Below, piece by piece: positions 10,095 through 30,267 of a stretch of 40,091 bases of DNA (position 1 is the first letter of the stretch; every line of letters begins with the position of its first letter). The notes under the pieces are model-generated. The model ran no database searches and was not told where the DNA came from. It worked only from the letters and a program-made list of their open reading frames with translations. The stretch is from sequence record PQ821641; one strand, written 5' to 3'. The position numbers were made by a program, and so were the translations under genes. This DNA comes from Escherichia phage SD6.

Positions 10095-10549
10095 TGACTA
10101 CCTGTAAAGACCTTGAAGTTGGAACACGTTACAGATTCTCAAAGAACACCCTGCTGAATAACCCCCAATTCACTGATGCTGTTTTCGAAAAGCGAGAAGA
10201 CCATAGCGTAATTGTGGAGAAGGGGTGGCATCCTGAGGATTACATCGGTGAGACTACCGGCTGGAATGGTCACGAGACCTACAGTGTAGAAGTTGTTGAA
10301 CATCCTCAAGTCCTGCCAGCCTCAAGCGTCCCTCCCGTCACCGTTAAACGTGAAGTCCTGACCATCAACAAGATTGGTGTAGGTCAGACGTTCATCGTCC
10401 ACGGTAAGCCTGACGAAGTGTACGTGAAGATTAGCAACTCTCACGTCTTCAACCATAAGTTGCTCCAGATGCACACGACTGACGCACATCGCTTCCAGTC
10501 ACATCTGAATCTGGTGGTAGTAGAGCTCGTTGTTTATAATGGAAAGTGA
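10091..10549 (+). CDS. Hypothetical protein (152 aa) inserted between endonuclease I and lysozyme
   Basis: Overlaps the endonuclease stop; no T7 counterpart at this locus; no recognisable family. Confidence 0.6.
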   Translation: MMTTCKDLEVGTRYRFSKNTLLNNPQFTDAVFEKREDHSVIVEKGWHPEDYIGETTGWNGHETYSVEVVEHPQVLPASSVPPVTVKREVLTINKIGVGQTFIVHGKPDEVYVKISNSHVFNHKLLQMHTTDAHRFQSHLNLVVVELVVYNGK

Positions 10550-10910
10550 CTGCATCGAGTGGGCTAAGAGTCGCAATAAGGATGGCTATGGTAGACGTAA
10601 ATTCCGTGGTCAATCTATGGGTGCTCATAGAGCAGCTTGGATAGAGACCAATGGTGCTATACCGGGAGGTCTTGTCGTAAGACACAAGTGTGATAACCGT
10701 GCATGCGTAAACATTGAGCACCTTGAGTTGGGGACTCAGGCAGAAAACATGATGGACTGCTCAGTACGCAGGACATTTAATTCAAAACTAACTGAAGATG
10801 ACGTTAAGGATATTCGCACCTCAAGCGAGACCCTTAAGTTTATGGCTGAAAAATACTCAGTAAGTGAGACAACCATAAGTCGAATCAGGAACCACAAGAG
10901 GTGGAAATAA
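10539..10910 (+). CDS. HNH homing endonuclease
   Basis: 123 aa from ATG 10539; HNH-type motif RHKCDNRACVNIEHLELGTQAENM; paralogous to the HNH at 29818. Confidence 0.85.
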   Translation: MESDCIEWAKSRNKDGYGRRKFRGQSMGAHRAAWIETNGAIPGGLVVRHKCDNRACVNIEHLELGTQAENMMDCSVRRTFNSKLTEDDVKDIRTSSETLKFMAEKYSVSETTISRIRNHKRWK

Positions 10911-10912
10911 TA

Positions 10913-11371
10913 ATGGGAAGTAAAGTACAATTCATGCCACGCAAGTCAACTGACGCTATCTTCGTTCACTGTTCGGCTACCAAGCCAGATATGGACATCG
11001 GGGTAGAGACCATCCGTATGTGGCACAAGCAGCAAGGCTGGCTGGACGTAGGCTACCACTTTATCATCAAGCGTGATGGCACTGTGGAAGAGGGACGCCC
11101 GGTCAATGTCGTAGGGTCACACGTTAAGGACTGGAACTCCAAGTCCGTAGGCGTCTGCCTTGTAGGTGGAATCAACGCTAAGGGTCAGTTTGAAGCTAAC
11201 TTCACTACAGCCCAGATGAACTCCCTGCGCAAAAAGCTGGCTGACCTGAAGGCATTGTATCCACAGGCAGAAATCAAAGCACACCATGACGTAGCGCCTA
11301 AAGCCTGTCCAAGTTTTGACTTGCAACACTGGCTATCTACCAATGAACTGGTCACTTCCGACCGTGGATAA
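10913..11371 (+). CDS. N-acetylmuramoyl-L-alanine amidase / T7-type lysozyme (gene 3.5)
   Basis: Near-collinear with T7 gp3.5: STDAIFVHCSATKP, WLDVGYHFIIKRDGTVEEGR, HHDVAPKACPSFDL, NELVTSDRG. Confidence 0.95.
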   Translation: MGSKVQFMPRKSTDAIFVHCSATKPDMDIGVETIRMWHKQQGWLDVGYHFIIKRDGTVEEGRPVNVVGSHVKDWNSKSVGVCLVGGINAKGQFEANFTTAQMNSLRKKLADLKALYPQAEIKAHHDVAPKACPSFDLQHWLSTNELVTSDRG

Positions 11372-11394
11372 TAAACTCTAAGGAGAACAGCTAA

Positions 11395-11610
11395 ATGATT
11401 AAACTCATCGAATTTCTTGGTCGTCTGGTGGTGCGTGGCTATCGTCGTGCTGCGGTACTGGAACGAAAGGTAGAAAAGAAGACTGCTGACGGTGCGGCTG
11501 ATGCTGCTGCTCTGGCTGACAAGTTGGCCATCGCGTCACTGGAAGCTGGCATGAAGGCACGTCAAGCTGACACCAAAGCTGACCAGTTGGCTCAGTTCTT
11601 CAAAGACTAA
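11395..11610 (+). CDS. Hypothetical protein (71 aa)
   Basis: AAGGAG upstream of the ATG; Ala-rich, probably helical; lies between the lysozyme and primase genes. Confidence 0.6.
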   Translation: MIKLIEFLGRLVVRGYRRAAVLERKVEKKTADGAADAAALADKLAIASLEAGMKARQADTKADQLAQFFKD

Positions 11611-11626
11611 ACTATCACCTTAGGGA
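11607..11626 (+). promoter_or_regulatory. Phage promoter variant (ACCTTAGGG core) upstream of gene 4
   Basis: CTAAACTATCACCTTAGGGA differs from consensus at two core positions. Confidence 0.45.
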
Positions 11627-11675
11627 TGGGACCACGAGTCCTGTCCCTCTGTTCGCATTATTGATTAAGGAGTGA

Positions 11676-13379
<1,704 letters not shown>

Positions 13380-13420
13380 GCGTGATATAGCTGATTATAA
13401 GAATTTATGGAGGACCGTTA

Positions 13421-13585
13421 GTGCTAAAGAAACTTAAAGCTCGCTACCATCGGTTCATGTACAAATGGTGGAGCGATGAAGCAACCTGCCTGTCGAACAT
13501 TCTGGGAGACCAAAGGTTCGACTCTAAGGCATGGAAGAAAGCTAACCGGAAGTTTATGTATCACTTCTTGCGTACAGACTTCTAG
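13421..13585 (+). CDS. Hypothetical small protein (54 aa, GTG start)
   Basis: GGAGG about 6 nt upstream of a GTG; fills the gap between gene 4 and gene 5; weak call. Confidence 0.3.
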   Translation: MLKKLKARYHRFMYKWWSDEATCLSNILGDQRFDSKAWKKANRKFMYHFLRTDF

Positions 13586-13587
13586 GT

Positions 13588-13632
13588 CTAGACTCAAGGT
13601 CATTCACATCGAGTGGCCTTTATGATTAGACT
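13588..13632 (+). promoter_or_regulatory. Putative RNase III site (R4.7-like hairpin) upstream of the DNA polymerase gene
   Basis: TAGACTCAAGGTCAT-TCACATCGAG-TGGCCTTTATGATTAGACT, imperfect inverted repeat with the shared GACTCAAGGT motif. Confidence 0.5.
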
Positions 13633-13648
13633 AAACGGAGGATTAACC

Positions 13649-15820
13649 ATGTTTGACCTTAAGAGTATCTGGGGTTCTGACATCGAGACCAACGGTCTCC
13701 TTGATACAGTCTCCCAGTTTCACTGTGGGGTCCTGATTAACGCCGAGTCGAATGAGACCCTTAAGTATGGGGTAGCTCCGATGGTCGGTATCGTCGGCGG
13801 CTTCAAAGAGTATGTGCAGAAGGTGGAAGAGATTGCCGCATCACCTGATGGTATGCTGGTATTCCACAACGGTATCAACTATGACGTCCCGGCTATTGAC
13901 AAGCTGAAGCGTCTGTACTTTGGGAAACGATTTAACTTCCCGAAACACAAGATGATTGATACCTTGGTGCTGGGCCGCTTGATGTATCCCAACATTAAGT
14001 TCTCAGACATGGGTGCGGTGAAAGCTGGTCGTCTACCACCTAAGATGATGGGACGCCAGTCTCTTGAGGCTTGGGGCTATCGTCTAGGTGAGATGAAGGG
14101 TGAATACAAACACGATTACGTTGCCAAGTGCAAGGCCGAAGGTATCGAATATAAGTCTGGGGACGAATGGTTGTTCCCCTCTCAAGAGATGCTGGACTAT
14201 AACGTTCAAGACGTTGTGGTCACACTGGCGTTGTTCAAGAAGTTCCTGACTGACAAGTATTACTTCCAGTCTGAACAGTCCGCTTTCGAACAGATTTATG
14301 CGTTGCGCCTGGAACATGATGCTGCGTGGACCTGTGCGAAGATGGAGCGTAACGGCTATCCGATGAACACCGAGATGGTCGAAGGCTTATATCGTGAACT
14401 TACTGTCAAACGTGCGGAGTTGCTGGACAAGCTGCGCTCGACTTTCGGTAGCTGGTATGCACCAAAGGGAGGCAAGGAGTTCTTCAGGCATCCACGGACA
14501 GGTAAGGACCTTCCGAAGTATCCGAGAGTCGTGTATCCCAAGGTCGGTGGCATCTTTAAGAAGCCTAAGAACAAAGCTCAACGCTTAGGTCTTGAACCTT
14601 GTGAACTCGATACGCGAGACACGATGGAGGGAGCACCGTTCACGCCAATCACTTACGTTGAGTTTAATCCGGGAAGCGGAGATCACTTAGCGAAAGTCCT
14701 GATGGAGCGTGGGTGGGAGCCTGTGGACTTCACTGACACCGGGAAACCTGTAGTCGATGACGAGACGCTAGAACACGTTAAGTTACCAGACGCAGAGGCT
14801 CAGGCTTGCGTAGAGCTGGTCCGTGAGTATCTGGTAGTCCAGAAGCGCATCGGTCAGGCGGCTGAAGGTAAGAACGCATGGTTGAAACTTGTAGGTCCAG
14901 ACGGACGTATGCACGGTTCAATCAACCCATGCGGGGCAGTAACCGGACGTGCTACTCACAGTTCACCAAACATGGCTCAGGTCCCGGCTAACGGTGCTCC
15001 ATATGGTGAGACTTGCCGTGGTGCTTTCGGTGCAGCGTGGAACAAGAAGGATGGTAAGCCAGACCCTTGGATTCAAGTAGGTGTGGATGCCTCAGGTCTT
15101 GAGCTTCGTTGTCTGGGGAACCGAGCGGCTCCGTTTGATGGTGGTGCATATGCGAAGACTGTGGTCGAAGGTGACATCCACTGGGCCAACGCAGTCAACG
15201 CTGGGTTAGCACCTAACGTCCCACGCGATAAGTCGAACCACGACCATGAGGCTTTCCGTAACAACGCTAAGACGTTCATCTATGCGTTCCTGTACGGTGC
15301 AGGGGCCGCTAAGATTGGACTGATAGTCGGTGGCGGTAAGAAGGAAGGTTCAGCTCTCATGAAGAAATTCATTGAGGGTACACCAGCCATCAAAGACCTC
15401 AGGGAAGCTGTGAGTAATACGTTAATCTCAGACTCTAAGTGGGTGGACGGTGAGAACATCGTCAAGTGGAAACGCCGTTGGTTGCGTGGACTTGATGGTC
15501 GCCGTATCCACATCCGGTCGCCACACTCAGCACTTAACGCATTACTTCAAGGTGATGGTGCGGTAGTCTGTAAGCACTGGATGGTGCTGACGGAGAAGAA
15601 ACTTGAGGAAGCTGGCTACGGTAACGGCTGGGATGGTGACTTTGCGTTAATGGCTTGGATTCACGACGAATTACAGATTGCGTGTCGTACTCAGAAGATA
15701 GCCGAAGATGTCGTCCGTATTGCACAAGAGGCAATGCGCGAGGTAGGGCGCTTCTATAACTTCAAGTGTGAGCTTGATACGGAGGGTAAGATTGGACCAA
15801 CGTGGAAAGAATGTCACTGA
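13649..15820 (+). CDS. DNA polymerase (gene 5, family A)
   Basis: Collinear with T7 gp5 (SDIETN exonuclease motif, RQSLEAWGYRLGEMKGEYK, NAKTFIYAFLYGAG, WIHDE); ATG 13649 with GGAGG upstream is preferred over the ORF-track start at 13613. Confidence 0.97.
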   Translation: MFDLKSIWGSDIETNGLLDTVSQFHCGVLINAESNETLKYGVAPMVGIVGGFKEYVQKVEEIAASPDGMLVFHNGINYDVPAIDKLKRLYFGKRFNFPKHKMIDTLVLGRLMYPNIKFSDMGAVKAGRLPPKMMGRQSLEAWGYRLGEMKGEYKHDYVAKCKAEGIEYKSGDEWLFPSQEMLDYNVQDVVVTLALFKKFLTDKYYFQSEQSAFEQIYALRLEHDAAWTCAKMERNGYPMNTEMVEGLYRELTVKRAELLDKLRSTFGSWYAPKGGKEFFRHPRTGKDLPKYPRVVYPKVGGIFKKPKNKAQRLGLEPCELDTRDTMEGAPFTPITYVEFNPGSGDHLAKVLMERGWEPVDFTDTGKPVVDDETLEHVKLPDAEAQACVELVREYLVVQKRIGQAAEGKNAWLKLVGPDGRMHGSINPCGAVTGRATHSSPNMAQVPANGAPYGETCRGAFGAAWNKKDGKPDPWIQVGVDASGLELRCLGNRAAPFDGGAYAKTVVEGDIHWANAVNAGLAPNVPRDKSNHDHEAFRNNAKTFIYAFLYGAGAAKIGLIVGGGKKEGSALMKKFIEGTPAIKDLREAVSNTLISDSKWVDGENIVKWKRRWLRGLDGRRIHIRSPHSALNALLQGDGAVVCKHWMVLTEKKLEEAGYGNGWDGDFALMAWIHDELQIACRTQKIAEDVVRIAQEAMREVGRFYNFKCELDTEGKIGPTWKECH

Positions 15821-15851
15821 CCATCGAACCAAGACCTTGCGTTTCCACACA

Positions 15852-16145
15852 ATGCCTACTGGATGTATCGTCTGCGTGTCCCACAAGAGGAACCAAGATG
15901 GATACTTCCGGTATTCTATGGGAAGCTACAGGAAGGGCAACAAGTTCGCCTTCATGTTTCACAGATGGGTGTGGGAACAGAAGCGTGGGCCTACACCAGA
16001 TGGCTATGAGATAGACCATTTGTGTTTGAATCGTGGGTGCTGTAACGTAGAGCACCTACAGTGTATTCCAAAGCGTGAGCACGTCATCAAGACGAACCGT
16101 GAGCGCAAACTTATTAAGAAGGAGAAAGATAATGGCTATTACTAA
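15852..16145 (+). CDS. HNH homing endonuclease
   Basis: 97 aa from ATG 15852; classic motif GYEIDHLCLNRGCCNVEHLQCIPKREH; directly follows the polymerase gene. Confidence 0.8.
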   Translation: MPTGCIVCVSHKRNQDGYFRYSMGSYRKGNKFAFMFHRWVWEQKRGPTPDGYEIDHLCLNRGCCNVEHLQCIPKREHVIKTNRERKLIKKEKDNGYY

Positions 16146-16428
16146 ACGTTTTAAAGTGTCATTCGAAATGACCGTAAAGGTTGACTCTGAGACTGAAGAT
16201 ATGCTTAAGGAACGCATCTTGGATTTGGCTCGCAGCGTTTGTGATGGTGAGTCCATAAATGCACAGGACAAAGAGTTACTCGTACAGGCCCTTACTCATG
16301 GTGCCGATGGTGCTGTTGCCTTTACTGTTAAGCATGGCGTTCGTAATATAATCCGTGAGATAGGCATTGAGCACCACGGAGAGGGAATTAAGTTTGCACC
16401 AGCAACTATTCGTGAGGTCAAGCAATGA
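16132..16428 (+). CDS. gp5.5-like protein
   Basis: 98 aa; ATG 16132 with AAGGAG upstream; N terminus MAITKRFKVSFEM; assigned by synteny and a remembered resemblance to T7 gp5.5. Confidence 0.6.
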   Translation: MAITKRFKVSFEMTVKVDSETEDMLKERILDLARSVCDGESINAQDKELLVQALTHGADGAVAFTVKHGVRNIIREIGIEHHGEGIKFAPATIREVKQ

Positions 16429-16634
16429 GTGAATACTTACGGGTCCTAGCGGCACTTAAGTCCTGCCCGAAGACCTTTCAGTCCAACTATGTGCGCAACA
16501 ACGCAGCACTAGTGGCTGAGGCTGCGAGTCGTGGACATCTAAGCTGCCTGTCTATGGATGGGCGTAACAACGGTGCATGGGAGATTACCGCTGCGGGCAC
16601 CAAGTTCCTGAATCAACATGGAGGCTGCCTATGA
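16425..16634 (+). CDS. gp5.7-like protein
   Basis: 69 aa; LKSCPKTFQSNYVRNNAALVAEAASRGH closely resembles T7 gp5.7 as remembered. Confidence 0.7.
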   Translation: MSEYLRVLAALKSCPKTFQSNYVRNNAALVAEAASRGHLSCLSMDGRNNGAWEITAAGTKFLNQHGGCL

Positions 16635-17080
16635 AGATACCTGAAAGTCTGAAAGAGCTGGTCCTTGACATGGGTGAGTGCGAGACGGAGCACAGAAAGT
16701 ACGATGAGTTCTACGCATCTTGGTCATACACCTTGACCGAGAAGGACGTTGAGGCATACGCCGAGTCTCCCTCTGATGCCTATGAGTGGCGTCCGTTCAT
16801 CGGGCTGACCATCGTAGCCAGTGGTATGTGGAGTGACAGCTGCGGTTCAGAGGTAAATGACTGGGTCGTATATCGCCAGGTTGAGAAGGAGACCGAAATA
16901 TCTTCCAACTTCTGGAGCTTGATGTCACACCTCAACTCAGAGGATAATGACATGGCCCATGAGTTCGCCAACAAATGGCTGAAGCCTGGGGTAACTCTGG
17001 AACGTATTGAGGAGCCGAAAGTTCCCTTGATGCCAGCTACGGTCGCTATGGCTACGGGAGGTCTAGACGATGGGTTCTGA
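16631..17080 (+). CDS. Hypothetical acidic protein (149 aa) at the gene 5.9 position
   Basis: ATG overlaps the gp5.7 stop; about 29 Asp+Glu versus 12 Lys+Arg (hand count); no recognisable family. Confidence 0.6.
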   Translation: MKIPESLKELVLDMGECETEHRKYDEFYASWSYTLTEKDVEAYAESPSDAYEWRPFIGLTIVASGMWSDSCGSEVNDWVVYRQVEKETEISSNFWSLMSHLNSEDNDMAHEFANKWLKPGVTLERIEEPKVPLMPATVAMATGGLDDGF

Positions 17081-17939
17081 GAAGAAGATAGCTCTGGTGC
17101 TGGATGGTGACTATCTGGTCTTCTCCTCTATGGCTGCTGCCGAGGACGAGACAGACTGGGGTGATGACATCTGGACACTTATCTGCGACCACAAGAAGGC
17201 TCGTCGTATCCTTGAGAACACCATCGCTGAAATCGTTAAGAAGCGCAAGGCGTGGAAAGACGCTAAGATTGTGATGTGCTTCACCGACGAGTACAACTGG
17301 CGTAAGGACGTCCTACCTACCTATAAGGCCAACCGTAAAGGTTCTCGCAAGCCTGTAGGTTACAAGAAGTTCGTAGCCGAAGTGATGGCTGACCCACGGT
17401 TCAACAGCTTCCTGCGTCCTACGCTTGAGGGCGATGACTGCATGGGTATCATTGGTACTCGACCTCAGATTGTTGGGTGCGACCATGCGGTGCTGGTGTC
17501 CTGTGATAAGGACTTCAAGACCATCCCGAACTGTGAGTTCTTCTGGTTGACAACTGGTGAAATCCTGAGTCATACGACTGCCGAGGCAGACTACTGGCAC
17601 ATGGAGCAGACCATCAAGGGTGACTCTACAGATGGCTACGGTGGCATTCCTGGGATGGGTGAGGATACCACTCGTGCGTTCCTTGATGAGCCGTACTACT
17701 TCGTGCAGGAGAGCCGTGAGCTTAAGACTGGTAAGAACAAAGGCCAGATTAAGACTGAGTGGAAGAAGTATCCTAAGCGTGAAGACATGACGCTTTGGGA
17801 CTGTATGGTGACTCTGGCTGCTAAAGCTGGGATGACCGAGGAGGAACTTCTGGTCCAAGCTCAGGTAGCTCGTATTTGCCGAGCCTCCGACTACGACCCT
17901 AAGTCCAAGGAGGTCATCCTATGGACACCATCCATGTAA
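17070..17939 (+). CDS. 5'-3' exonuclease (gene 6)
   Basis: 289 aa; LDGDYLVF, PTYKANRK, SCDKDFKTIPNC, TIKGDSTDGY and WDCMVTLAAKAGMTEEE as in T7 gp6. Confidence 0.95.
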   Translation: MGSEKKIALVLDGDYLVFSSMAAAEDETDWGDDIWTLICDHKKARRILENTIAEIVKKRKAWKDAKIVMCFTDEYNWRKDVLPTYKANRKGSRKPVGYKKFVAEVMADPRFNSFLRPTLEGDDCMGIIGTRPQIVGCDHAVLVSCDKDFKTIPNCEFFWLTTGEILSHTTAEADYWHMEQTIKGDSTDGYGGIPGMGEDTTRAFLDEPYYFVQESRELKTGKNKGQIKTEWKKYPKREDMTLWDCMVTLAAKAGMTEEELLVQAQVARICRASDYDPKSKEVILWTPSM

Positions 17940-18013
17940 TTTACTGGGTCGGACTTCTGGCCCTTTACTGCATGTACAAGTGGTTCGGGTCGAACAACCG
18001 CCCTAAACACTGA
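17921..18013 (+). CDS. Hypothetical small membrane peptide (30 aa, gp6.3-like position)
   Basis: AGGAGG 7 nt upstream of the ATG; hydrophobic IYWVGLLALYCMY; overlaps the exonuclease 3' end. Confidence 0.35.
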   Translation: MDTIHVIYWVGLLALYCMYKWFGSNNRPKH

Positions 18014-18066
18014 ATCTAACCGATAGTCATATCCTATCAATCCAACAGTCATCCATAGGTGAAACA

Positions 18067-18088
18067 CTAAACTATCACTATAGGGACT
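18067..18088 (+). promoter_or_regulatory. Phage promoter (phi6.5-like)
   Basis: CTAAACTATCACTATAGGGACT. Confidence 0.7.
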
Positions 18089-18149
18089 TTAGGACCTAAG
18101 ATATGACTATAAGATAGACTTTAGTCTTAACTTAAAGAGGAGATTCAAG

Positions 18150-18422
18150 ATGGCGATTAATGCTATTGAAAACGTTGTTAAGCAGTTACAGGAAGAAAGA
18201 CTCGATGTACCGAACATCTCCCAGTCTGCCATCCAGTTCCTGCACGTATTGTTCAACGCAAGCTACGCTGAGAAGATGGGAGCTATCAGCCTCCTCAAGC
18301 AGCAAGGCTACAGCGATGCGTTCATTGCCGGGTTTATCAAGGGTCTCCAGTATTGCTCTGACACTCTCGACTCTGCGATTGCTATGCGTCGTGAGCTGAA
18401 AGATACCGTTCAGTTCGATTAA
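18150..18422 (+). CDS. Hypothetical protein (90 aa, gp6.5 position)
   Basis: AGAGGAG upstream of the ATG; downstream of a phage promoter. Confidence 0.6.
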   Translation: MAINAIENVVKQLQEERLDVPNISQSAIQFLHVLFNASYAEKMGAISLLKQQGYSDAFIAGFIKGLQYCSDTLDSAIAMRRELKDTVQFD

Positions 18423-18436
18423 CTGTAGGAGGGACT

Positions 18437-18661: not shown

Positions 18662-18665
18662 GACA

Positions 18666-19311: not shown

Positions 19312-19323
19312 GGAGGCACGTAG

Positions 19324-21874: not shown

Positions 21875-21876
21875 GA

Positions 21877-21898
21877 CTAAACTATCACTATAGGGAGA
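21877..21898 (+). promoter_or_regulatory. Phage promoter (phi10-like), best consensus match
   Basis: CTAAACTATCACTATAGGGAGA, with a GGTTTCCC-containing leader resembling the T7 gene 10 leader. Confidence 0.8.
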
Positions 21899-22001
21899 CC
21901 AAGAGACAGACTCAAGGTTTCCCCTATTACTTCAGTCCATACGGATTGGGCGTACAGTAAGTAATACACTTTATCTTTCAATTGAATAGGAGAATTATCA
22001 T

Positions 22002-23045
22002 ATGGCAAACGTTCCGGGTCAGAAAATTGGTACAGACCAAGGTAAAGGCAAATCCAGTACCGACGCTCTGGCGTTGTTCCTGAAGGTATTTGCTGGTGAA
22101 GTCCTGACCGCATTCACTCGCCGCTCTGTAACGGCTGACAAGCATATTGTCCGTACCATTCAGAACGGTAAGTCTGCTCAGTTCCCGGTCATGGGTCGCA
22201 CCTCTGGTGTGTATCTGGCTCCTGGTGAGCGACTGTCCGATAAGCGTAAAGGTATCAAACATACCGAGAAAGTGATTACCATTGATGGTCTGCTGACTGC
22301 CGATGTGATGATTTTCGACATTGAAGACGCGATGAACCACTACGACGTGGCTGGCGAGTATTCCAACCAGTTGGGTGAAGCTCTGGCTATCGCTGCTGAT
22401 GGTGCTGTTCTGGCTGAAATGGCTACCCTGTGTAACCTCCCAGCTGCATCCAACGAGAACATCGCTGGTCTTGGTACTGCTTCCGTACTGCAAGTTGGTA
22501 AGAAAGCTGACCTCGACACCCCGGCTAAACTGGGCGAAGCAATCATCGGTCAACTGACCATTGCTCGTGCGAAGCTGACCGCCAACTACGTTCCTGCTGG
22601 CGACCGTTACTTCTACACCACGCCGGACAACTACTCTGCAATCCTCGCGGCTCTGATGCCTAACGCTGCTAACTATGCTGCGCTGATTGACCCAGAGACT
22701 GGTAACATCCGTAACGTGATGGGCTTCGTTGTTGTTGAAGTTCCGCATCTGGTACAGGGTGGTGCTGGTGAGACCCGTGGTGCCGACGGTATCACTATCG
22801 CTTCAGGTCAGAAACACGCATTCCCGGCGACTGTTACTGGCGACGTTAAAGTTGCTATTGACAACGTTGTGGGCCTGTTCTCTCACCGTTCTGCTGTGGG
22901 CACTGTTAAGCTGCGCGATTTGGCACTTGAACGTGACCGTGACGTAGATGCTCAGGGCGACCTGATTGTTGGTAAGTACGCTATGGGTCACGGCGGTCTG
23001 CGTCCTGAAGCGGCTGGCGCACTGGTTTTCAGCCCAGCGGCGTAA
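22002..23045 (+). CDS. Major capsid protein (gene 10A)
   Basis: 347 aa, collinear with T7 gp10A (ALFLKVF.GEVLTAF, KHTEKVITIDGLLTADV, GTVKLRDLALER, AMGHGGLRPEAAGA). Confidence 0.97.
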   Translation: MANVPGQKIGTDQGKGKSSTDALALFLKVFAGEVLTAFTRRSVTADKHIVRTIQNGKSAQFPVMGRTSGVYLAPGERLSDKRKGIKHTEKVITIDGLLTADVMIFDIEDAMNHYDVAGEYSNQLGEALAIAADGAVLAEMATLCNLPAASNENIAGLGTASVLQVGKKADLDTPAKLGEAIIGQLTIARAKLTANYVPAGDRYFYTTPDNYSAILAALMPNAANYAALIDPETGNIRNVMGFVVVEVPHLVQGGAGETRGADGITIASGQKHAFPATVTGDVKVAIDNVVGLFSHRSAVGTVKLRDLALERDRDVDAQGDLIVGKYAMGHGGLRPEAAGALVFSPAA

Positions 23046-23176
23046 GCACCTTTAGCCAACCTAACGTCGCTACAGTAGCGGCTGCACCTGAAGAGGAGAC
23101 CCTAACTCCTCAACAGAAAGCTGCGCGTACTCGTGCTGCGAACAGGGTCGCTAAACTGGCTAAGTCCAACAACTAA
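22002..23176 (+). CDS. Minor capsid protein (gene 10B) made by -1 frameshifting at G GTT TTC (23024-23030)
   Basis: The heptamer GGTTTTC lies 5 codons before the 10A stop and the -1 frame stays open for 51 codons to a TAA at 23174-23176, mirroring T7 10A/10B. Confidence 0.6.
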
Positions 23177-23182
23177 TTGAAA

Positions 23183-23218
23183 CCCCTTGGGTGCCTTCGG
23201 GTGCTTGAGGGGTTTTTT
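23183..23218 (+). terminator. Tphi-like intrinsic terminator after the capsid gene
   Basis: CCCCTTGGGTGCC-TTCG-GGTGCTTGAGGGG followed by TTTTTT; G-U-rich stem like T7 Tphi. Confidence 0.75.
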
Positions 23219-23239
23219 GCTTAAAGTGAGAGGAGACTT

Positions 23240-23806
23240 ATGGCTCAATACATTCCACTGAATGCTAACGATGACTTAGACGCCATCAACGATATGTTAG
23301 CTGCTATCGGTGAACCAGCAGTCCTACAGCTTGACGAGGGGAACGCTGACGTATCGAACGCTCAACGTATACTGCATCGTGTCAATCGTCAGGTCCAAGC
23401 CAAAGGCTGGAACTTTAATATCAACGAAGCTGCTGTCCTGACACCTGATGTCCAAGACAATAGGATTCGATTCTTGCCGTCATACCTTCGTGTAATGACC
23501 GCTGGGGCCACCAGCTACTACAGCAACATGGGTGGATACCTGTACGACCTGTCCACTCAGTCAACCACTTTCACCGACCCTATCACGGTAGAGCTTGTGG
23601 AGATGAAGCCATTCTCCGAGATGCCTGTGGTCTTCAGGGACTACATCGTCACTAAAGCTAGCCGAGAGTTCAACGCTAAGTTCTTCGGTAGCCCAGAGTC
23701 TGAACTGTACCTTCGTGAGCAGGAAGCAGAACTCTATCAGCAGGTCATGGAATACGAGATGGATACTGGTCGCTACAACATGATGTCTGACATAGGGAGG
23801 GACTAA
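23240..23806 (+). CDS. Tail tubular protein A (gene 11)
   Basis: 188 aa; IVTKASREFNAKFFG.PE and MEYEMD.G.YNM as in T7 gp11. Confidence 0.95.
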   Translation: MAQYIPLNANDDLDAINDMLAAIGEPAVLQLDEGNADVSNAQRILHRVNRQVQAKGWNFNINEAAVLTPDVQDNRIRFLPSYLRVMTAGATSYYSNMGGYLYDLSTQSTTFTDPITVELVEMKPFSEMPVVFRDYIVTKASREFNAKFFGSPESELYLREQEAELYQQVMEYEMDTGRYNMMSDIGRD

Positions 23807-24033
23807 TGGCTAGTCACAACCTGAAGATTCACCGCCAGCACTTTGGTCCAGTACAACTAGGTCTAAAGACAGCAGAGCTGAGACTTAACGACCGGGACTT
23901 TAAGGTTGGCGATTGGCTTATCCTGAATGAGTGGGACAACGGGTATACTGGACAACAGGTAGCGCGTAAGGTTGTCCACATTGCTGAAGTTGGTGACATC
24001 GCTGAAGGATACGTCCTAATGAGTATGATTTAA
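23806..24033 (+). CDS. DUF3850 / ASCH-like domain protein (75 aa)
   Basis: H.LKIH...F..V..G.KTAELRLNDRDFKVGDWL.L.EW motif typical of DUF3850; TAATG overlap with gene 11; GGGAGGG upstream. Confidence 0.6.
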   Translation: MASHNLKIHRQHFGPVQLGLKTAELRLNDRDFKVGDWLILNEWDNGYTGQQVARKVVHIAEVGDIAEGYVLMSMI

Positions 24034-24042
24034 GGAGGGCCT

Positions 24043-26400
24043 ATGCCGCTTATCACACAAAGCATAAAAAATCTTAAAGGTGGCATTAGCCAGCAGCCTG
24101 ATATACTGAGGTTCTCAGACCAAGGCGAGGCACAGGTTAACTGCTGGTCATCCGAGAGTGATGGCCTCCAGAAGCGCCCACCTACAGTCTTCAAGAGACG
24201 TCTTAACATCGACGTTGGGAGCAACCCTAAGTTCCATCTGATTAACCGTGACGAGCATGAGCAGTATTATATCGTGTTCAATGGGTCCAACATTCAGGTA
24301 GTTGACTTGAGTGGTAATCAATACTCAGTGTCCGGTGCGGTAGATTACGTTAAGTCCTCCAACCCACGAGATGACATCCGTGTCGTTACCGTGGCAGACT
24401 ATACGTTCGTCGTTAACCGTAAGGTTGTCGTCAAAGGTGGAAGCGAGAAGTCACACTCTGGTTATAACAGCAAAGCACGAGCTTTAATTAACCTGCGTGG
24501 TGGACAGTATGGTCGAACCCTTAAGGTAGGAATCAACGGAGGCGTTAAGGTTTCGCATAAGTTGCCAGCAGGTAATGATGCCGAGAATGACCCACCTAAG
24601 GTGGACGCTCAAGCCATTGGAGCAGCTCTGAGAGACCTTCTTGTTGCTGCCTATCCTACCTTCACGTTTGACCTTGGGTCTGGATTCCTGCTAATCACAG
24701 CTCCTTCAGGGACCGATATTAACTCAGTGGAGACGGAGGACGGCTACGCTAACCAGCTAATAAGCCCAGTCCTAGACACTGTGCAGACAATCTCTAAACT
24801 ACCTCTTGCCGCTCCTAATGGGTATATCATTAAGATTCAAGGTGAGACAAACAGTAGCGCCGATGAATACTACGTGATGTATGACTCCAACACTAAGACG
24901 TGGAAGGAGACAGTGGAGCCGGGAGTGGTAACTGGGTTCGATAACACCACAATGCCACATGCTCTGGTGAGACAATCTGACGGCTCCTTTGAGTTCAATA
25001 CTCTGGATTGGTCCAAGCGTGGTGCTGGTAACGATGACACAAACCCTATGCCTAGCTTCGTGGATGCTGCGATTAACGATGTGTTCTTCTACAGGAACAG
25101 ACTTGGGTTCTTGTCGGGTGAGAACGTAATCATGAGCCGTTCAGCCAGCTACTTTGCGTTCTTCCCTAAGAGTGTGGCGACACTGAGCGATGATGACCCT
25201 ATTGATGTAGCTGTAAGTCATCCTCGTATCTCAATCCTTAAGTATGCCGTTCCGTTTAGCGAGCAGCTACTACTTTGGTCGGATGAGGTTCAGTTCGTGA
25301 TGACAAGCTCTGGGGTCCTTACCTCGAAGTCTATCCAGCTTGATGTAGGATCAGAGTTTGCCTTAGGTGATAATGCCAGACCGTTCGCTGTAGGACGCTC
25401 AGTCTTCTTCTCAGCTCCTCGTGGGTCATTCACCAGCATTAAGCGATACTTCGCTGTAGCTGATGTGTCTGATGTGAAGGATGCCGATGATACAACTGGT
25501 CACGTATTGTCCTACATCCCTAACGGGGTGTTTGATATTCAAGGTACAGGGACTGAGAACTACATCTGCGTCAACTCTACAGGTGCATACAACCGTATCT
25601 ACATCTACAAGTTCTTGTTTAAGGACGGCGTACAGCTTCAAGCCTCTTGGTCACACTGGGAGTTCCCTAAAGATGATAAGATTCTGGCGTCTGCTTCTAT
25701 TGGCTCTACCATGTTCATCGTTCGTCAGCACCAAGGAGGGGTAGACATTGAGCACCTTAAGTTCATCAAGGAAGCAACTGACTTCCCGTCAGAGCCATAT
25801 AGACTACACATTGACTCCAAGGTGTTTATGGTAATTCCAATTGGCTCATATAATGCTGACACCTATAAGACTACGGTTGACATTGGTGCTGCTTATGGTG
25901 GCAACGCTCCGTCTCCCGGTCGGTACTATCTGATTGACAGTCAGGGTGCTTATGTGGACCTTGGGGACTTGACCAGTAACTCTACTGTGATTACCCTCAA
26001 CGGCGATTGGTCAGGACGTACAGTGTTCATCGGACGGTCCTATCTGATGTCCTACAAGTTCTCACGGTTCCTGATTAAGATTGAAGATGATAGTGGCACT
26101 CAGTCTGAAGACACTGGTCGTCTACAGCTTCGTCGGGCTTGGGTCAACTACAAGGACACTGGCGCTCTGAGACTCATTGTAAGAAACGGTGAGCGGGAGT
26201 TCGTGAATACCTTCAACGGGTACACCCTTGGTCAGCAAACCATCGGTACTACAAACATTGGTGACGGGCAGTATCGCTTCGCTATGAATGGTAACGCATT
26301 AACCACGAGTCTAACCTTAGAGTCAGACTATCCTACCCCAGTGTCCATCGTTGGGTGTGGCTGGGAGGCGTCATACGCTAAGAAAGCTCGTTCCGTCTAA
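24043..26400 (+). CDS. Tail tubular protein B (gene 12)
   Basis: 785 aa, collinear with T7 gp12 (SQSIKNLKGGISQQPDILR, HLINRDEHEQYY, DDDPIDVAVS, KYAVPFSE, GRLQLRRAWVNY, GCGWE). Confidence 0.97.
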   Translation: MPLITQSIKNLKGGISQQPDILRFSDQGEAQVNCWSSESDGLQKRPPTVFKRRLNIDVGSNPKFHLINRDEHEQYYIVFNGSNIQVVDLSGNQYSVSGAVDYVKSSNPRDDIRVVTVADYTFVVNRKVVVKGGSEKSHSGYNSKARALINLRGGQYGRTLKVGINGGVKVSHKLPAGNDAENDPPKVDAQAIGAALRDLLVAAYPTFTFDLGSGFLLITAPSGTDINSVETEDGYANQLISPVLDTVQTISKLPLAAPNGYIIKIQGETNSSADEYYVMYDSNTKTWKETVEPGVVTGFDNTTMPHALVRQSDGSFEFNTLDWSKRGAGNDDTNPMPSFVDAAINDVFFYRNRLGFLSGENVIMSRSASYFAFFPKSVATLSDDDPIDVAVSHPRISILKYAVPFSEQLLLWSDEVQFVMTSSGVLTSKSIQLDVGSEFALGDNARPFAVGRSVFFSAPRGSFTSIKRYFAVADVSDVKDADDTTGHVLSYIPNGVFDIQGTGTENYICVNSTGAYNRIYIYKFLFKDGVQLQASWSHWEFPKDDKILASASIGSTMFIVRQHQGGVDIEHLKFIKEATDFPSEPYRLHIDSKVFMVIPIGSYNADTYKTTVDIGAAYGGNAPSPGRYYLIDSQGAYVDLGDLTSNSTVITLNGDWSGRTVFIGRSYLMSYKFSRFLIKIEDDSGTQSEDTGRLQLRRAWVNYKDTGALRLIVRNGEREFVNTFNGYTLGQQTIGTTNIGDGQYRFAMNGNALTTSLTLESDYPTPVSIVGCGWEASYAKKARSV

Positions 26401-26424
26401 CTTATTGAATGGCCTATAGATTTA

Positions 26425-26447
26425 CCTTAACTATCACTATAGGGACT
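26425..26447 (+). promoter_or_regulatory. Phage promoter (phi13-like)
   Basis: CCTTAACTATCACTATAGGGACT. Confidence 0.7.
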
Positions 26448-26476
26448 ATAGGCCCTTAAGGTTATAAGGAGCCTTT

Positions 26477-26959
26477 ATGTATATTCGCAAGGCTACGGAA
26501 CCAGATGTCCACTACTTTCTGTGGCATCTTTCGGCAGATGATGTTAATGAGTGCAAAGCAGCCTATGGGTCAACCGTGGGTCTCTCTGAAAGACTGCTTA
26601 AGCATTTATCTCCGTCATCTGTGGTTTTAACAAACAGTGTAGGAGAAGTGTTTGCCTATGGTGGGAACCAAGGGGACAACGTATGGTTCTTGACTTCAGG
26701 TCTGGTACACAAGCTGAGACCTAAAGAGAAGCGAGAGTTCATAAAGCATATCTCTGAGTACAGGGACTTAATGTTAGACCAATACGGGACCATCTGGAAC
26801 TACGTGTGGTCAGGCAATAAGTCTCACATTAAATTCTTGAAGTTGCTTGGTGCTAAGTTCCATGATGATTGGACTATCAGCCAGGTAACTGGTGAGAGTT
26901 TTCAATTATTCACTATCTCTAAGGAGGACGTATGTGTGAACCAGTATCCATCGGTCTAG
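26477..26959 (+). CDS. Internal virion protein gp13-like
   Basis: 160 aa; assigned by synteny between gene 12 and gene 14. Confidence 0.7.
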   Translation: MYIRKATEPDVHYFLWHLSADDVNECKAAYGSTVGLSERLLKHLSPSSVVLTNSVGEVFAYGGNQGDNVWFLTSGLVHKLRPKEKREFIKHISEYRDLMLDQYGTIWNYVWSGNKSHIKFLKLLGAKFHDDWTISQVTGESFQLFTISKEDVCVNQYPSV

Positions 26960-27519
26960 GAGTCATGTCTGTAGCCGGGGCCACTATGTCCGCATCCCAA
27001 CAGGCCAAGGCTGAAGGAGCATCAATTGATGCTCAGAACCGACAGTCTCAGGAAATGGTTAAGCAGATGAACTACTCTGACGCCAACCTGAGGATGCAGG
27101 AGCGAGACCTGAAGGAGCAGCAGATGGCTGAACTGACAGAGACCACGCTCAACGGTATCCGCAATCAGGGTATGGTCCGAGCTGCGGTGGCTGAGTCCGG
27201 TCTGGAAGGTAACTCTATGGACAGGATTGAACGTCAGGTCGCAGGAGATACAGTCAAGGAGCGAGCAGGGATTACCGAAAGTTACAACCGCGACTATGCG
27301 GCTATCTTCGGGAACCGTATCGCCAACATTGAGAACACCAAGTCTGCTATCCGTGGTCAAGGTAAAATCATTAAGACCAGCCCACTGGCTCATGCACTTA
27401 ATGTTGCTACCGCCGGGATGCAAGGCTACGCCGCTGGTAAGGCAATCTCTGGAGCGTCCAGCTCTGGGGGTGCTGCACCAATTAGTGCTGCTAAAGGTAC
27501 ACCTACAGGTCATAGCTAA
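26932..27519 (+). CDS. Internal virion protein B (gene 14)
   Basis: 195 aa; starts MC..., LEG.SMDRI and ENY.RDY.AIF as in T7 gp14; AAGGAGG upstream. Confidence 0.85.
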   Translation: MCEPVSIGLGVMSVAGATMSASQQAKAEGASIDAQNRQSQEMVKQMNYSDANLRMQERDLKEQQMAELTETTLNGIRNQGMVRAAVAESGLEGNSMDRIERQVAGDTVKERAGITESYNRDYAAIFGNRIANIENTKSAIRGQGKIIKTSPLAHALNVATAGMQGYAAGKAISGASSSGGAAPISAAKGTPTGHS

Positions 27520-27530
27520 GAGGAGGACTA

Positions 27531-29813
27531 ATGGCTAGTAATATTGAATCAGCTCTGGCTAATCGGACTATGGGTCGCGGCAGAGCGCCGGGTAAAACTA
27601 TCTCCGTCAACTATCAAGCAGCCAACGTTCAGGCTCCGACTGGGGACTCCGGGCTGGCCCGTGCGTTAACTAACTTCGTTGAGTCTGGGACAGGATTGTA
27701 CAAGCAGTTCAAGGATGATGAGAAGACCAGAGCTGACGAGCGGTCTAACGAGATTATCCGTAAACTGACACCTCAGCAAAGACGTGAGGCTATCCAGAAC
27801 GGCACATTGCTGTATCAGGACGACCCTTACGCTATGGAAGCACTTCGAGTCAAGACTGGTCGTAATGCTGCCTTTGCTGTGGACGACGAGATTAACGTTA
27901 AGATTCAGAACGGTGAGTTCCGCACACGTCAGGAAATGGAAGAATATCGCCACCAGCGACTTCAGGATGCCGCTAAGTCCTATGCTGAAGAGGCGGGTAT
28001 TAACCCTACCGACGAGTTCTTCCAGCGTGGATTCAACGATAACATCACGGACCGAAACATCGCTATCTACGGGTCCTTCAATAAGTATTTCAGCAAGCAG
28101 TCTGAAGAGACAGCAATGTTGAACACTCGTATTGAGCTGAACTCGTTCCTTAACGATGGGGACCTGATGCGTTCGCCTGAGTCTGGAAAGACCTTCATGG
28201 CCTACCTTCGGGATGGACTGACGACTGCTGCTATACCTTCGGACCAGAGAGCACGAGAGGTCATCACCCAGACGGTACGTGACGCAATCCAGAAGTCAGG
28301 AGGCTCAAACTTCCTACAGCAAGTCCGTGGCGAGCGTATCACCCTTAATGGTGTTGACGCTACCATCGAAGAGATTGTAGGACCTGACGTCTTCAATGCT
28401 GCTATGGTTGAGGCCCAAGGTACTGAGTATAAACTGGTGGCTAAGTATCAGGAAGACTTGGCGTTAGGCGTTCAGTCTGCGATTCTTCAGGATGACCCAA
28501 CCATCGGTCTGGCCCAGATTCAGAAACTCAAGGAGCAGAACAACCAGCTTCAACCCGGTGAAGAACTCACTCCTCAGCGCCAGATGCTTATTAACGCCGA
28601 AGCTACACTACTGGAAGCGGTAAAGCGTAAGTCTGCTGAACAGGCGAAGGAGAACACGAAGTTAATCCAGACCCAGAACAAGCAACTGGTCATTGACCAA
28701 GTTTATCAGCGACGTCTGGCTGGGGACAACGTGTCAACCAACTATGAGGACCTTCCGGTATCTGAATCTACAGGAGAGTTTAAGCGTTCAGACATGAACA
28801 ACTATGCGGCTGCCAAGCTACAGCAGATTGACCAGCTGGACATCCCTGAGGCTGCTAAAGACGCGCAGAAGGTGGCATTGTTAAGAGCCGACACTAACAA
28901 CGGTCCGTTCCGTAATTCCTTCCAGACTCTGACTCAGGACGCTGCTGGTGAGTGGCAAGCTGCGGTCATCCGTGGGCAGTACGACCCAGAAAAGATGCAA
29001 CGCTTCGAATCTCTTCGTCGTGCCTACACTCAGGACCCTTCAAGTTTTGCTGCGCTGTATCCTGACCAAGCTCAGTTGTTCTCTACGTTCGACCAGATGG
29101 ACAAGATGGGTCTGGACCCTCAGACTATGATTGAAGCTGATAAGCAAGCTGCAAGTCAAAGTCGTGAGATGCGCATGGAGTCAGACAAGGCGTGGCAGGA
29201 GTTGAAGAACGACTCCAAGAACACCCAGTTGTCTCGCCTCCCAACGTCTCTGGACTCAAGTGCTCGTAAGGTCTGGGACTCATGGTACTATCGTACAGGT
29301 AACGCTGACGCTGCCACACAGCAGACTCAACGCTGGCTGAATGAGAACACCGTAACGTTCCAGTCTGAAGGTTCTGACGGTAAGTCAATCGGCATGGTGT
29401 CCAAGCACCAGCTTATGGTCGGGGATAACCCAGAGTCGTGGCAGGTAGGTCGAGACATTATCGACACCGCTCGTAAGCAGCTCATTAAGGCCAATCCTTG
29501 GGTAGTGAACTCTCAGTTGTCCGTTGTTGAACAGAACGGCTCTATCTTCCTCCAAGACGCTACAGGGACTATTCGTATTCGCTACGATAAAGAACTTGTA
29601 GGTAAACTCTACCGCGAACAACAGCAGAAGGCACAAGATGCCGCATATGCTCAGGCAGAACGTGACGCCAACAAGCGAGCGCGTATCGTCGGGACTAAAG
29701 CTGCTGGTGACAAACGTCGAGCTGACCGAGAGGCCAACATCGAGAAGCGCGGTGGGATGTACAATGACGTCTCACTGGAGGGTATCGCATATACACTAAT
29801 CGGTAAGGAGTAA
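27531..29813 (+). CDS. Internal virion protein C (gene 15)
   Basis: 760 aa; ADERSNEIIRKLTPQQRREA.QNGTLLYQDDPYAMEALRVKTGRNAA and IRIRYDKEL as in T7 gp15. Confidence 0.95.
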   Translation: MASNIESALANRTMGRGRAPGKTISVNYQAANVQAPTGDSGLARALTNFVESGTGLYKQFKDDEKTRADERSNEIIRKLTPQQRREAIQNGTLLYQDDPYAMEALRVKTGRNAAFAVDDEINVKIQNGEFRTRQEMEEYRHQRLQDAAKSYAEEAGINPTDEFFQRGFNDNITDRNIAIYGSFNKYFSKQSEETAMLNTRIELNSFLNDGDLMRSPESGKTFMAYLRDGLTTAAIPSDQRAREVITQTVRDAIQKSGGSNFLQQVRGERITLNGVDATIEEIVGPDVFNAAMVEAQGTEYKLVAKYQEDLALGVQSAILQDDPTIGLAQIQKLKEQNNQLQPGEELTPQRQMLINAEATLLEAVKRKSAEQAKENTKLIQTQNKQLVIDQVYQRRLAGDNVSTNYEDLPVSESTGEFKRSDMNNYAAAKLQQIDQLDIPEAAKDAQKVALLRADTNNGPFRNSFQTLTQDAAGEWQAAVIRGQYDPEKMQRFESLRRAYTQDPSSFAALYPDQAQLFSTFDQMDKMGLDPQTMIEADKQAASQSREMRMESDKAWQELKNDSKNTQLSRLPTSLDSSARKVWDSWYYRTGNADAATQQTQRWLNENTVTFQSEGSDGKSIGMVSKHQLMVGDNPESWQVGRDIIDTARKQLIKANPWVVNSQLSVVEQNGSIFLQDATGTIRIRYDKELVGKLYREQQQKAQDAAYAQAERDANKRARIVGTKAAGDKRRADREANIEKRGGMYNDVSLEGIAYTLIGKE

Positions 29814-29817
29814 CATA

Positions 29818-30267
29818 ATGAAGAACGGGACAGCCAGTGAGAGACTGGCAGAACTGTCAGTAGCCGAAGAGTCTGGCTGTATCCGATTCACAGGCCACTT
29901 AGACGGAGAAGGATACGGAAGGATAATGGTGGCTAGGGTTAAGTATATGGCACATCGTCTCTCCTACTCCCTAAATAATGGGCCAATACCAGATGGCTAT
30001 GTTGTTAGGCATAAATGTGATAATCCATCATGCATAAATCCTGAACACCTTGAAGTAGGAACGCAGGCTGACAACATTGCAGATAAGGTTTCCAGAGGCC
30101 GACAGGCAAGAGGTAGTGGAGCAGGCAGAGCTATACTGACAGAGGAATCTGTTAGGGAAATACGCTCCAGTCCATTAAAAGTATCTGAGCTTTCCACCTT
30201 ATACGGGGTAAGCGTCGTTTCCATACGAAATATATTGAGGAGAAAGACATGGCAACACGTGGTGTAA
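29818..30267 (+). CDS. HNH homing endonuclease
   Basis: 149 aa; VVRHKCDNPSCINPEHLEVGTQADN; paralogous to the HNH at 10539; overlaps the gene 16 start by 19 nt. Confidence 0.85.
   Translation: MKNGTASERLAELSVAEESGCIRFTGHLDGEGYGRIMVARVKYMAHRLSYSLNNGPIPDGYVVRHKCDNPSCINPEHLEVGTQADNIADKVSRGRQARGSGAGRAILTEESVREIRSSPLKVSELSTLYGVSVVSIRNILRRKTWQHVV

Follow-up and report, generated by a model that had tools for sequence, protein, structure and literature searches.

Three small genes for HNH endonucleases lie between conserved genes in the genome of Escherichia phage SD6 (sequence record PQ821641), and they raise the question of how they came to be there, whether two of them are copies of one another, and whether the one that overlaps the start of gene 16 has shaped the N-terminal domain of the protein encoded by that gene. 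The window analysed here, meaning the whole stretch of 40,091 bp, is a complete genome, that of a K1F-like relative of T7 in the genus Kayfunavirus; many Escherichia, Salmonella and Citrobacter phages match it at 93-95% identity across most of its length, and it is collinear in gene order with EcoDS1 and PH1061. Genes are named after the T7/EcoDS1 scheme, and the three genes in question are referred to as HNH1, HNH2 and HNH3 in the order in which they occur. Our comparisons suggest that they are very probably ordinary free-standing HNH (His-Me finger) homing endonuclease genes, of a kind common in T7-like phages. The HNH genes of T7-like genomes are routine, already annotated passengers, and finding three more of them matters little in itself. 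What the near-isogenic natural pairs of phages described below do offer are insertion points fixed to the nucleotide, the limits of a putative co-conversion tract of ~280 nucleotides (nt) in gene 16, and concrete candidate target sites for cleavage assays.

The original prediction, made from the sequence letters alone, had placed HNH genes at these three positions, and each of them bears up. On translation all three open reading frames (ORFs) are free of internal stops, and all three match Pfam HNH_3 (PF13392), for which the gathering score is 24.8 bits, with 60.2, 65.0 and 55.0 bits for HNH1, HNH2 and HNH3, respectively (E 1e-15 to 5e-18); each also matches PHROG 'HNH endonuclease' families. 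The catalytic and zinc-ligand positions are all intact in the SD6 copies. HNH1 aligns residue for residue with HNH3 across the conserved HNH positions, and HNH2 carries the signature DH..N..EH...REH, which is an H-N-H pattern as opposed to the H-N-N pattern of the other two. The genes are free-standing, situated between gp3.2 and the gp3.5 amidase (HNH1), between gene 5 and gene 5.5 (HNH2), and between gene 15 and gene 16 (HNH3); none of them is inside an intron or intein, and the DNA polymerase gene, gene 15 and gene 16 are uninterrupted. When all three proteins were used as tblastn queries no fourth copy was found in the SD6 genome, and a Pfam scan of nine SD6 ORFs from regions that differ from EcoDS1 revealed no other nuclease families. 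The GC content of the HNH genes is 44.6-46.9%, as compared to 49.8% for the genome and 51-52% for the adjacent genes, a seemingly foreign composition that supports the view of acquired cassettes. No match to the phage promoter consensus was found within or beside any of the three cassettes, and they are therefore likely to be read from existing operon transcripts.

Each HNH gene forms a discrete cassette between conserved genes and is absent from otherwise collinear relatives such as EcoDS1. The boundaries of HNH3 can be read to the base. In EcoDS1, gene 15 is followed by a gap of 3 nt and then by gene 16, and the sequence through AAGGAGTAACATAATG is the same in SD6; the ATG within it opens gene 16 in EcoDS1 and HNH3 in SD6. 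From this ATG at 29818 to the second ATG at 30249, which is preceded by GAGGAG at 30237, the HNH3 cassette measures 431 nt, and this is the length difference seen in some 25 empty genomes among the matches listed. The overlap of 19 nt between HNH3 and gene 16 that had been predicted is exact, with the gene 16 start at 30249 and the HNH3 stop at 30267. Here the HNH3 codons AGG AGA AAG ACA TGG CAA CAC GTG GTG TAA encode RRKTWQHVV, and the same bases also hold the first seven codons of gene 16, beginning with its ATG, together with a Shine-Dalgarno sequence. Both reading frames leave their mark on the shared bases. For example, codon 3 of gene 16 is ACA or GCA in occupied alleles versus ACT in all 14 empty ones, which keeps His147 of HNH3. 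Similarly, codons 6-7 are GTA AGG or ATA AGA in occupied alleles versus ATT CGC in empty ones, which creates the TAA stop of HNH3, and the substitution I6V in gp16 is explained by the creation of this stop.

The sequence next to the HNH3 cassette changes along with it, and does so on one side. This can be followed in near-isogenic pairs that come from the same phage collections. Between CHRF_10022, which carries HNH3, and CHRF_20041, which does not, identity in gene 16 stands at 66% for the first 98 nt, rises to 84% for the 150 nt that follow and is 97% thereafter. Similarly, gene 16 of ST20 (with HNH3) and ST21 (without) differs by 63 nt in codons 1-93, by 0 in the next 100 and by 9 in the following 300, and the last 300 codons of gene 15 differ by 10 nt in the same pair. 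An HNH-linked allele at the 3′ end of gene 15 was looked for and not found, identity between CHRF_10022 and CHRF_20041 being 99.6-100% in gene 15 up to the junction. The 5′ sequence of gene 16 is near-invariant across all of the empty alleles (14/14), and all of the HNH3-bearing alleles (9/9) differ from it, so that a tract of ~90-280 nt co-varies perfectly with HNH3 presence. Within this tract 6-12 residues are changed, and synonymous codons outnumber non-synonymous ones by 32-35 to 12-13. The replaced unit therefore appears, from these alignments, to be the HNH3 cassette together with about 280 nt downstream, on one side only, and the one-sided gene 16 tract looks like a homing co-conversion or immunity tract. 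SD6 itself shows a patchwork: codons 1-30 of its gene 16 belong to the HNH3-linked allele, codons 31-50 have synonymous variants of their own, and the empty type sets in at about codon 51, which makes SD6 a further recombinant. The variants in codons 31-50 (30339-30398) occur in 0 of the 22 other gene 16 alleles compared.

These tracts bear on a different explanation, in which the HNH genes persist only as relics without activity, the flanking variation being a recombination mosaic that has nothing to do with a nuclease. T7-like genomes are indeed highly mosaic, as SD6 itself illustrates with a foreign gp5.5 body (see below) and the unique codons 31-50 of gene 16, and the activity of HNH1, HNH2 and HNH3 is putative. 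We nevertheless consider this explanation quite unlikely, both because the catalytic and zinc-ligand positions are intact in every SD6 copy and because the divergent tract begins exactly at the cassette boundary, extends to one side only, and is the sole divergent segment in pairs of genomes that are otherwise 98-100% identical.

A comparable arrangement is found at the HNH1 site. In genomes without the cassette, the stop codon of gp3.2 and the start of the amidase gene overlap (…TACAATGGTAAGTAA…), and in SD6 HNH1 starts at the corresponding ATG (ATGGAAAGTGA) and the amidase restarts 374 nt further on, behind AAGAGGTGG. The HNH1 cassette accordingly extends over 374 nt from the ATG at 10539 to the ATG at 10913, and it is absent from EcoDS1 and Vec13. 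Comparison with relatives places the amidase start at this second ATG and not at the GTG of the ORF list (10901), which lies inside HNH1. Amidase codons 2-12 read MGSKVQFMPRKS in the HNH1-linked allele versus MVSKVQFNPRSR in empty genomes, and four synonymous changes in the last five gp3.2 codons are likewise linked to HNH1 presence. HNH1 is rare; the only other records with it are PH1061 and ZH4 (96-99% protein identity), and no intact HNH1 was found in the 22 IMG/VR Kayfunavirus loci compared. In ZH4 the gene is frameshifted by one extra G (GAGTTGGGGG; ZH4 fragment 1825-2197), resulting in two annotated 'hypothetical proteins', and this copy is either a pseudogene or a sequencing error. In an IMG/VR genome that is probably ZG49, only the last 105 nt of HNH1 are left, as two tandem copies with the HNH1-type amidase allele alongside. 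Fragment 1400-2000 of this genome holds a tandem repeat of ~386 nt in which each 105-nt HNH1 end is fused to 5′ amidase sequence; this is either an HNH1 that has decayed and undergone a duplication or an artefact of the assembly.

The gene 5/5.5 junction, where HNH2 is located, is a hot spot. Where this junction is empty, TAATG combines the stop of gene 5 with the start of gene 5.5, and it is there that SD6 has an insert of 312 nt, in which HNH2 begins after a 31-nt spacer from gene 5 and the gene 5.5 Shine-Dalgarno sequence (AAGGAG, 16119-16124) lies inside the last HNH2 codons. We collected loci for this junction by means of the DNA polymerase C-terminus, a gp5.5 query having brought up only FE44-like phages. 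Among 20 such IMG/VR loci, 8 are empty, 4 hold an HNH2-type gene, 3 hold a PD-(D/E)XK endonuclease (PF11645, E 7e-11) that is unrelated to HNH2, 4 hold an insert of ~160 nt, and 1 is of ambiguous occupancy. In phage YZ1 (fragment 1320-1707) and other relatives a 375-nt insert encodes the PD-(D/E)XK endonuclease in place of HNH2, and its ORF, like that of SD6 HNH2 and in the same frame, ends with ...NGYY and a stop across the gp5.5 start. The last ~80 nt of gene 5 occur as two main alleles, one in two HNH2-bearing genomes and the PD-(D/E)XK-bearing genomes, the other in empty genomes and those with the ~160-nt insert. Downstream, the body of SD6 gp5.5 (16152-16413) cannot be aligned with that of other Kayfunavirus and is 80-89% identical at the nucleotide level to FE44-like phages of another genus, with a sharp mosaic boundary ~20 nt into gene 5.5. 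With this foreign allele directly downstream, HNH2 therefore stands at a mosaic boundary, a position in keeping with a report that nuclease genes tend to lie at the borders of genetic exchange (PMC10448857).

Table 1. Features of the three HNH cassettes and their neighbours in the SD6 genome (positions in the window).
Feature	Position	Strand	Description
gp3.2-like gene	10091-10549	+	Precedes HNH1 and shares its last 11 nt with the HNH1 start
HNH1	10539-10910	+	123 amino acids; HNH_3 endonuclease with C-terminal helix-turn-helix-like region; gp7.7-like family
HNH1 3′ end, AAGAGGTGGAAATAATAATG	10896-10915	+	K-R-W codons form a Shine-Dalgarno-like sequence; stop, then new amidase ATG
gp3.5 N-acetylmuramoyl-L-alanine amidase	10913-11371	+	PF01510
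Gene 5, DNA polymerase	13649-15820	+	Start inferred from EcoDS1 gene length; the ORF list starts at GTG 13613
HNH2	15852-16145	+	97 amino acids; HNH_3 endonuclease; no helix-turn-helix tail
Gene 5.5	16132-16428	+	PF11247; 14-nt overlap between its start and the HNH2 stop
Gene 15, internal virion protein C	27531-29813	+	Upstream of HNH3
Ancestral gene 16 translation start region, AAGGAGTAACATAATG	29805-29820	+	Identical in empty EcoDS1; now serves HNH3
HNH3	29818-30267	+	149 amino acids; HNH_3 endonuclease with C-terminal three-helix helix-turn-helix
Replacement gene 16 start region, GAGGAGAAAGACATG	30237-30251	+	Inside HNH3; encoded by the family-conserved C-terminal R-R-K-T-W
Dual-coding overlap	30249-30267	+	19 nt; gp16 residues 1-7 (MATRGVR) and HNH3 residues 145-149 (WQHVV) plus stop
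Gene 16, internal virion protein D	30249-34136	+	N-terminal muralytic (endolysin-like) domain

How, then, are the three genes related? On account of an extended motif in both, HNH1 and HNH3 had been taken for duplicates or a recently mobile family. The motif is present, exactly as VVRHKCDNRACVNIEHLELGTQAEN in HNH1 and VVRHKCDNPSCINPEHLEVGTQADN in HNH3, and the similarity reaches well past the generic HNH motif: the two proteins share 40% amino acid identity over 130 aligned positions (BLASTP, E 1e-30), with homology over their whole length including the C-terminal helix-turn-helix. Even after removal of the 25-residue motif, the N-terminal and C-terminal parts score with z = 11.8 and z = 10.7, respectively, in a local aligner, and 0 of 2000 shuffles reach the observed score. 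This similarity, along with the like domain architecture and the long common motif, is what one might expect if HNH1 and HNH3 were recent paralogues that arose by duplication inside the SD6 genome, one copy having been transposed to a second site. We regard such a duplication as very unlikely, however, since the DNA of the two is alike over 101 nt only, at ~70%, and each gene is closer to genes at other sites in other phages. HNH1 has closer relatives elsewhere in phage 13a gp7.7 (49%) and Xanthomonas phage genes (48%), and HNH genes carried at other sites by Dickeya and Pseudomonas phages share 48-50% identity with HNH3, so that the identity rankings already point to non-sister lineages. Moreover, about 18 genomes have HNH3 without HNH1, which is itself present in only 3, and the motif hardly differs from the consensus of the subfamily as a whole, which reads VVxHKCDNPxCxNPxHLxxGTQADN in an alignment of 50 sequences. 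HNH1 and HNH3 are thus best regarded, by these comparisons, as separately acquired members of a large T7 'gp7.7-like' family, of which about 1000 GenBank phage records have a member at E < 1e-10. The suggestion of a mobile family has fared better than that of duplicates, for any one of the HNH genes is carried by only a minority of the Kayfunavirus genomes that are otherwise collinear. The resemblance of HNH2 to HNH1 and HNH3 is confined to the HNH core (32-34%), and HNH2 is instead the orthologue of T3 gene 5.3 and phiYeO3-12 5.3; it is 82% identical in amino acid sequence to each of them, and is similarly positioned directly after gene 5 and overlapping gene 5.5.

At the gene 15/16 junction an HNH gene is present in about 20 distinct GenBank phages of the ~220 that have the region, and in 3 of 23 IMG/VR Kayfunavirus loci. 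One clade is at least 98% identical to SD6 HNH3 and comprises five GenBank phages only (ST20, CHRF_10022, PDP21P1, T147P5 and 22664UKE3-2), a second is 77-85% identical (CR44b, PH1061, ZH4 and others), and a third is 56-60% identical (GA2A, TM1, Pipis and Ro45lw). A protein identical to HNH3 is encoded on 18 metagenomic contigs, recorded only in Logan and ENA assemblies. Several metagenomic variants of HNH3 have C-terminal frameshifts or truncations that remove the helix-turn-helix, one truncated form being found on 17 contigs, and one further variant is a chimera in which an unrelated N-terminal stretch of 65 amino acids is joined at the VVRHKCDN motif.

Given that the ORFs are intact and that HNH3 is 98-100% conserved on dozens of contigs, the HNH genes might be domesticated and serve a beneficial function, either as weapons against co-infecting genomes or as nucleases for replication or packaging. 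There are precedents that would fit: an intron-encoded endonuclease is reported to mediate competition of co-infecting phages (PMC11620839), and genomes of Hafnia phage Ca with an HNH gene are predominant in large plaques (PMC8861465). We consider this unlikely all the same. For each of the HNH genes, most close relatives lack it and are viable; some copies are frameshifted or truncated; and no HNH gene stands next to the terminase genes, unlike the packaging HNH proteins of HK97 type. In addition, competition by cleavage of a rival's allele would proceed by the same mechanism as homing, and a benefit of this kind would be an addition to homing more than a true alternative. A tblastn search likewise revealed no HNH_3-type homologue near the SD6 terminase region (~36.7-39.7 kb). 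A terminase-associated HNH protein of the HK97 gp74 type was also considered for these genes and was ruled out, as none lies beside the terminase and all three are dispensable in relatives.

Structure prediction provided a further view of HNH3. An AlphaFold model based on the 50-sequence alignment, with a mean predicted local distance difference test (pLDDT) score of 88, has a beta-rich HNH core (residues 14-92), a low-pLDDT linker (98-103) and three helices (109-140). In this alignment H65, C67, D68, C72, H77 and N86 are invariant, and N74 and W145 are each conserved in at least 90% of the sequences. The best match to the model in the PDB is I-HmuI (1u3e), an intron-encoded nicking HNH endonuclease of Bacillus phage SPO1, with a Foldseek probability of 1.00, followed by I-PpoI. 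A phmmer search of HNH3 against PDB sequences found nothing at E up to 1, and the link to I-HmuI comes from fold comparison only. The HNH3 model has the same modular plan as I-HmuI, an N-terminal HNH domain with a C-terminal helix-turn-helix, HNH2 being without the latter; HNH1, HNH2 and HNH3 differ from I-HmuI in that they are not in a group I intron.

HNH1 and HNH3 occupy precisely the point at which the downstream gene once started and have taken over its ribosome-binding site and ATG. All three cassettes in turn carry a replacement ribosome-binding site for the downstream gene within their own 3′ ends, HNH3 contributing a replacement ATG as well, so that expression of the amidase, gp5.5 and gp16 would be preserved. 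In the homing process that we envisage, during co-infection with a relative that lacks the HNH gene, the enzyme would nick or cut the empty allele near the junction. The target of HNH3 is likely to be within the conserved first ~50-100 nt of gene 16, that of HNH1 is probably the gp3.2/amidase junction, and that of HNH2 is probably the 3′ end of gene 5. Repair by recombination with the HNH-bearing genome would then copy the cassette together with adjacent sequence by co-conversion, and the carrier would escape its own enzyme because this adjacent sequence is altered at many sites, mostly synonymously. Cleavage activity, these target sites and present-day mobility are thus predicted for all three genes. 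A homing cycle is expected to pass through stages in which a copy is intact, decaying or absent, and we infer that the intact, decayed and absent copies of HNH1 and HNH3 correspond to such stages.

Several points weigh against this reading. Homing is argued here from comparative evidence, and both cleavage and preferential inheritance of HNH1, HNH2 and HNH3 are putative. The flanking tracts could stem from ordinary recombination hot spots or from hitch-hiking, and the chance of 1 in 817,190 that simple combinatorics gives for the 'perfect association' of HNH3 with its tract overstates independence, the sampled genomes being phylogenetically related. For HNH2 the linkage is weaker, as its gene 5 allele is common to PD-(D/E)XK genomes and two further HNH2 loci have a third allele. 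Finally, the TM-score between the HNH3 model and I-HmuI is only 0.36 and the sequence identity 15%; the low TM-score arises because two flexibly linked domains are placed differently.

Known systems offer several parallels to the homing proposed for SD6. T3 gene 5.3 is HNH2's counterpart in both sequence (82%) and gene 5/5.5 position, as described above. Phage 13a gp7.7, the 49% identical relative of HNH1, is found at the 7.3/8 junction, as opposed to the gp3.2/gp3.5 junction for HNH1. The gene 7.7C of Citrobacter phage CR44b, a 'predicted homing endonuclease' with an annotated helix-turn-helix, is 85% identical to HNH3 and occupies the same 15/16 junction. The MobA, MobE and Seg endonucleases of T4 are, like HNH1, HNH2 and HNH3, encoded by intergenic cassettes without promoters between conserved genes (PMC2988022). 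For such free-standing T4 endonucleases, intronless homing, co-conversion, targets in a neighbouring essential gene, and signals for neighbouring genes inside the endonuclease ORF have been described (PMC2988022; PMC2790892). The T4 enzymes differ in that they are not close homologues, belong to another phage family and have shown activity, whereas HNH1, HNH2 and HNH3 are known from sequence. The embedded signal in T4 is a promoter, in contrast to a ribosome-binding site and start codon in SD6, and the linked tract of SD6 lies directly against the cassette, while in T4 the cleavage site may be hundreds of bp from it. Within Kayfunavirus, Hafnia phage Ca/yong1 has an HNH cassette of ~400 bp that overlaps the upstream stop and the downstream start, as in SD6, at a different junction (lysis gene/large terminase), where SD6 has no gene of HNH_3 type. 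The Hafnia phage Ca HNH gene measures 397 bp, overlaps both of its neighbours and is polymorphic in presence within one stock (PMC8861465).

The original prediction had also proposed that homing shaped an atypical N-terminal domain of gp16, and only part of this proposal survives. Residues 1-200 of gp16 are nearly identical to chain L of PDB 9vvp, a 1295-amino acid protein named 'Gp29', and the N-terminal domain also matches the endolysin 7q47 (E 4.5e-13) and PHROG endolysin families; a Pfam search for an SLT domain in gp16 gave no match. The domain is atypical relative to the SLT domain of T7, but it is usual for the genus, since HNH-free phages have the same gp16 domain with about 93% identity over the first 100 residues. 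It is the normal muralytic domain of the genus, in which homing appears to have changed only the first codons and not to have created the domain. What can be retained is the influence on the HNH3-linked tract described above, and the first residues, which read MATRGVRNA in the occupied allele and MATRGIRNN in the empty one, illustrate how the start of gp16 has been rewritten. Further into the gene, gp16 of PH1061 is 1462 amino acids long versus 1295 in SD6, with ~500 extra nt in mid-gene (PH1061 fragment 29365-29917 versus SD6 32306-32357) and decreased similarity in the flanks (78%).

The rewriting of a downstream start might extend beyond gene 16. In diverse metagenomic homologues the C-terminus of the gp7.7-like family has a conserved [R/K][R/K]xTWxH[V/I] motif followed by 0-3 residues. 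We tentatively suggest, from about nine junction types, that this motif may serve as a translation start module which the element brings along, with codons (AGG AGA AAG ACA TGG) that form a Shine-Dalgarno sequence, and often the ATG, for the downstream gene. Such elements could thereby insert precisely at the start codons of essential genes throughout Autographiviridae. The first ~7-30 downstream codons would be rewritten as a by-product, and such divergent tracts would mark the targets of the enzymes. For example, at the gene 2.5/gene 3 junction of other Kayfunavirus, endonuclease I starts with MATRSIS or MARTIS when an HNH gene lies upstream and with MAQWSAK or (V)AAWTPK when it does not. 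The same logic of HNH end and start codon is seen for gene 3 in FE44-like phages, the HNH junction at the DNA ligase gene of Przondovirus IME205 reads AGGAGAacttggaaATGA, and upstream of gene 8 in phage 13a the W-R codons of the HNH gene give GGAGG. In SD6 the gene 2.5/3 site (near 9642) is empty and endonuclease I starts with MAQWSAK. If the suggestion is correct, the specificities of HNH enzymes would be predictable from comparative genomics alone.

The same cassettes call for caution in annotation, as the first codons of the amidase, gp5.5, gp16 and endonuclease I depend on the HNH cassette upstream, and the 3′ ends of the HNH cassettes are dual-coding. Some Kayfunavirus phages are used therapeutically, and pairs of phages from this genus may provide a clean natural system for the study of homing, marker exclusion and mosaic boundaries. 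Two other variable segments lie in the neighbourhood of the HNH genes. The 5′ half of SD6 gp3.2 (10091-10305), near HNH1, is a variable module that differs from, or is longer than, its EcoDS1 counterpart. Similarly, the ORF between gene 5.7 and gene 6 (16634-17076; ~150 amino acids, no Pfam match) differs from, or is longer than, that of EcoDS1.

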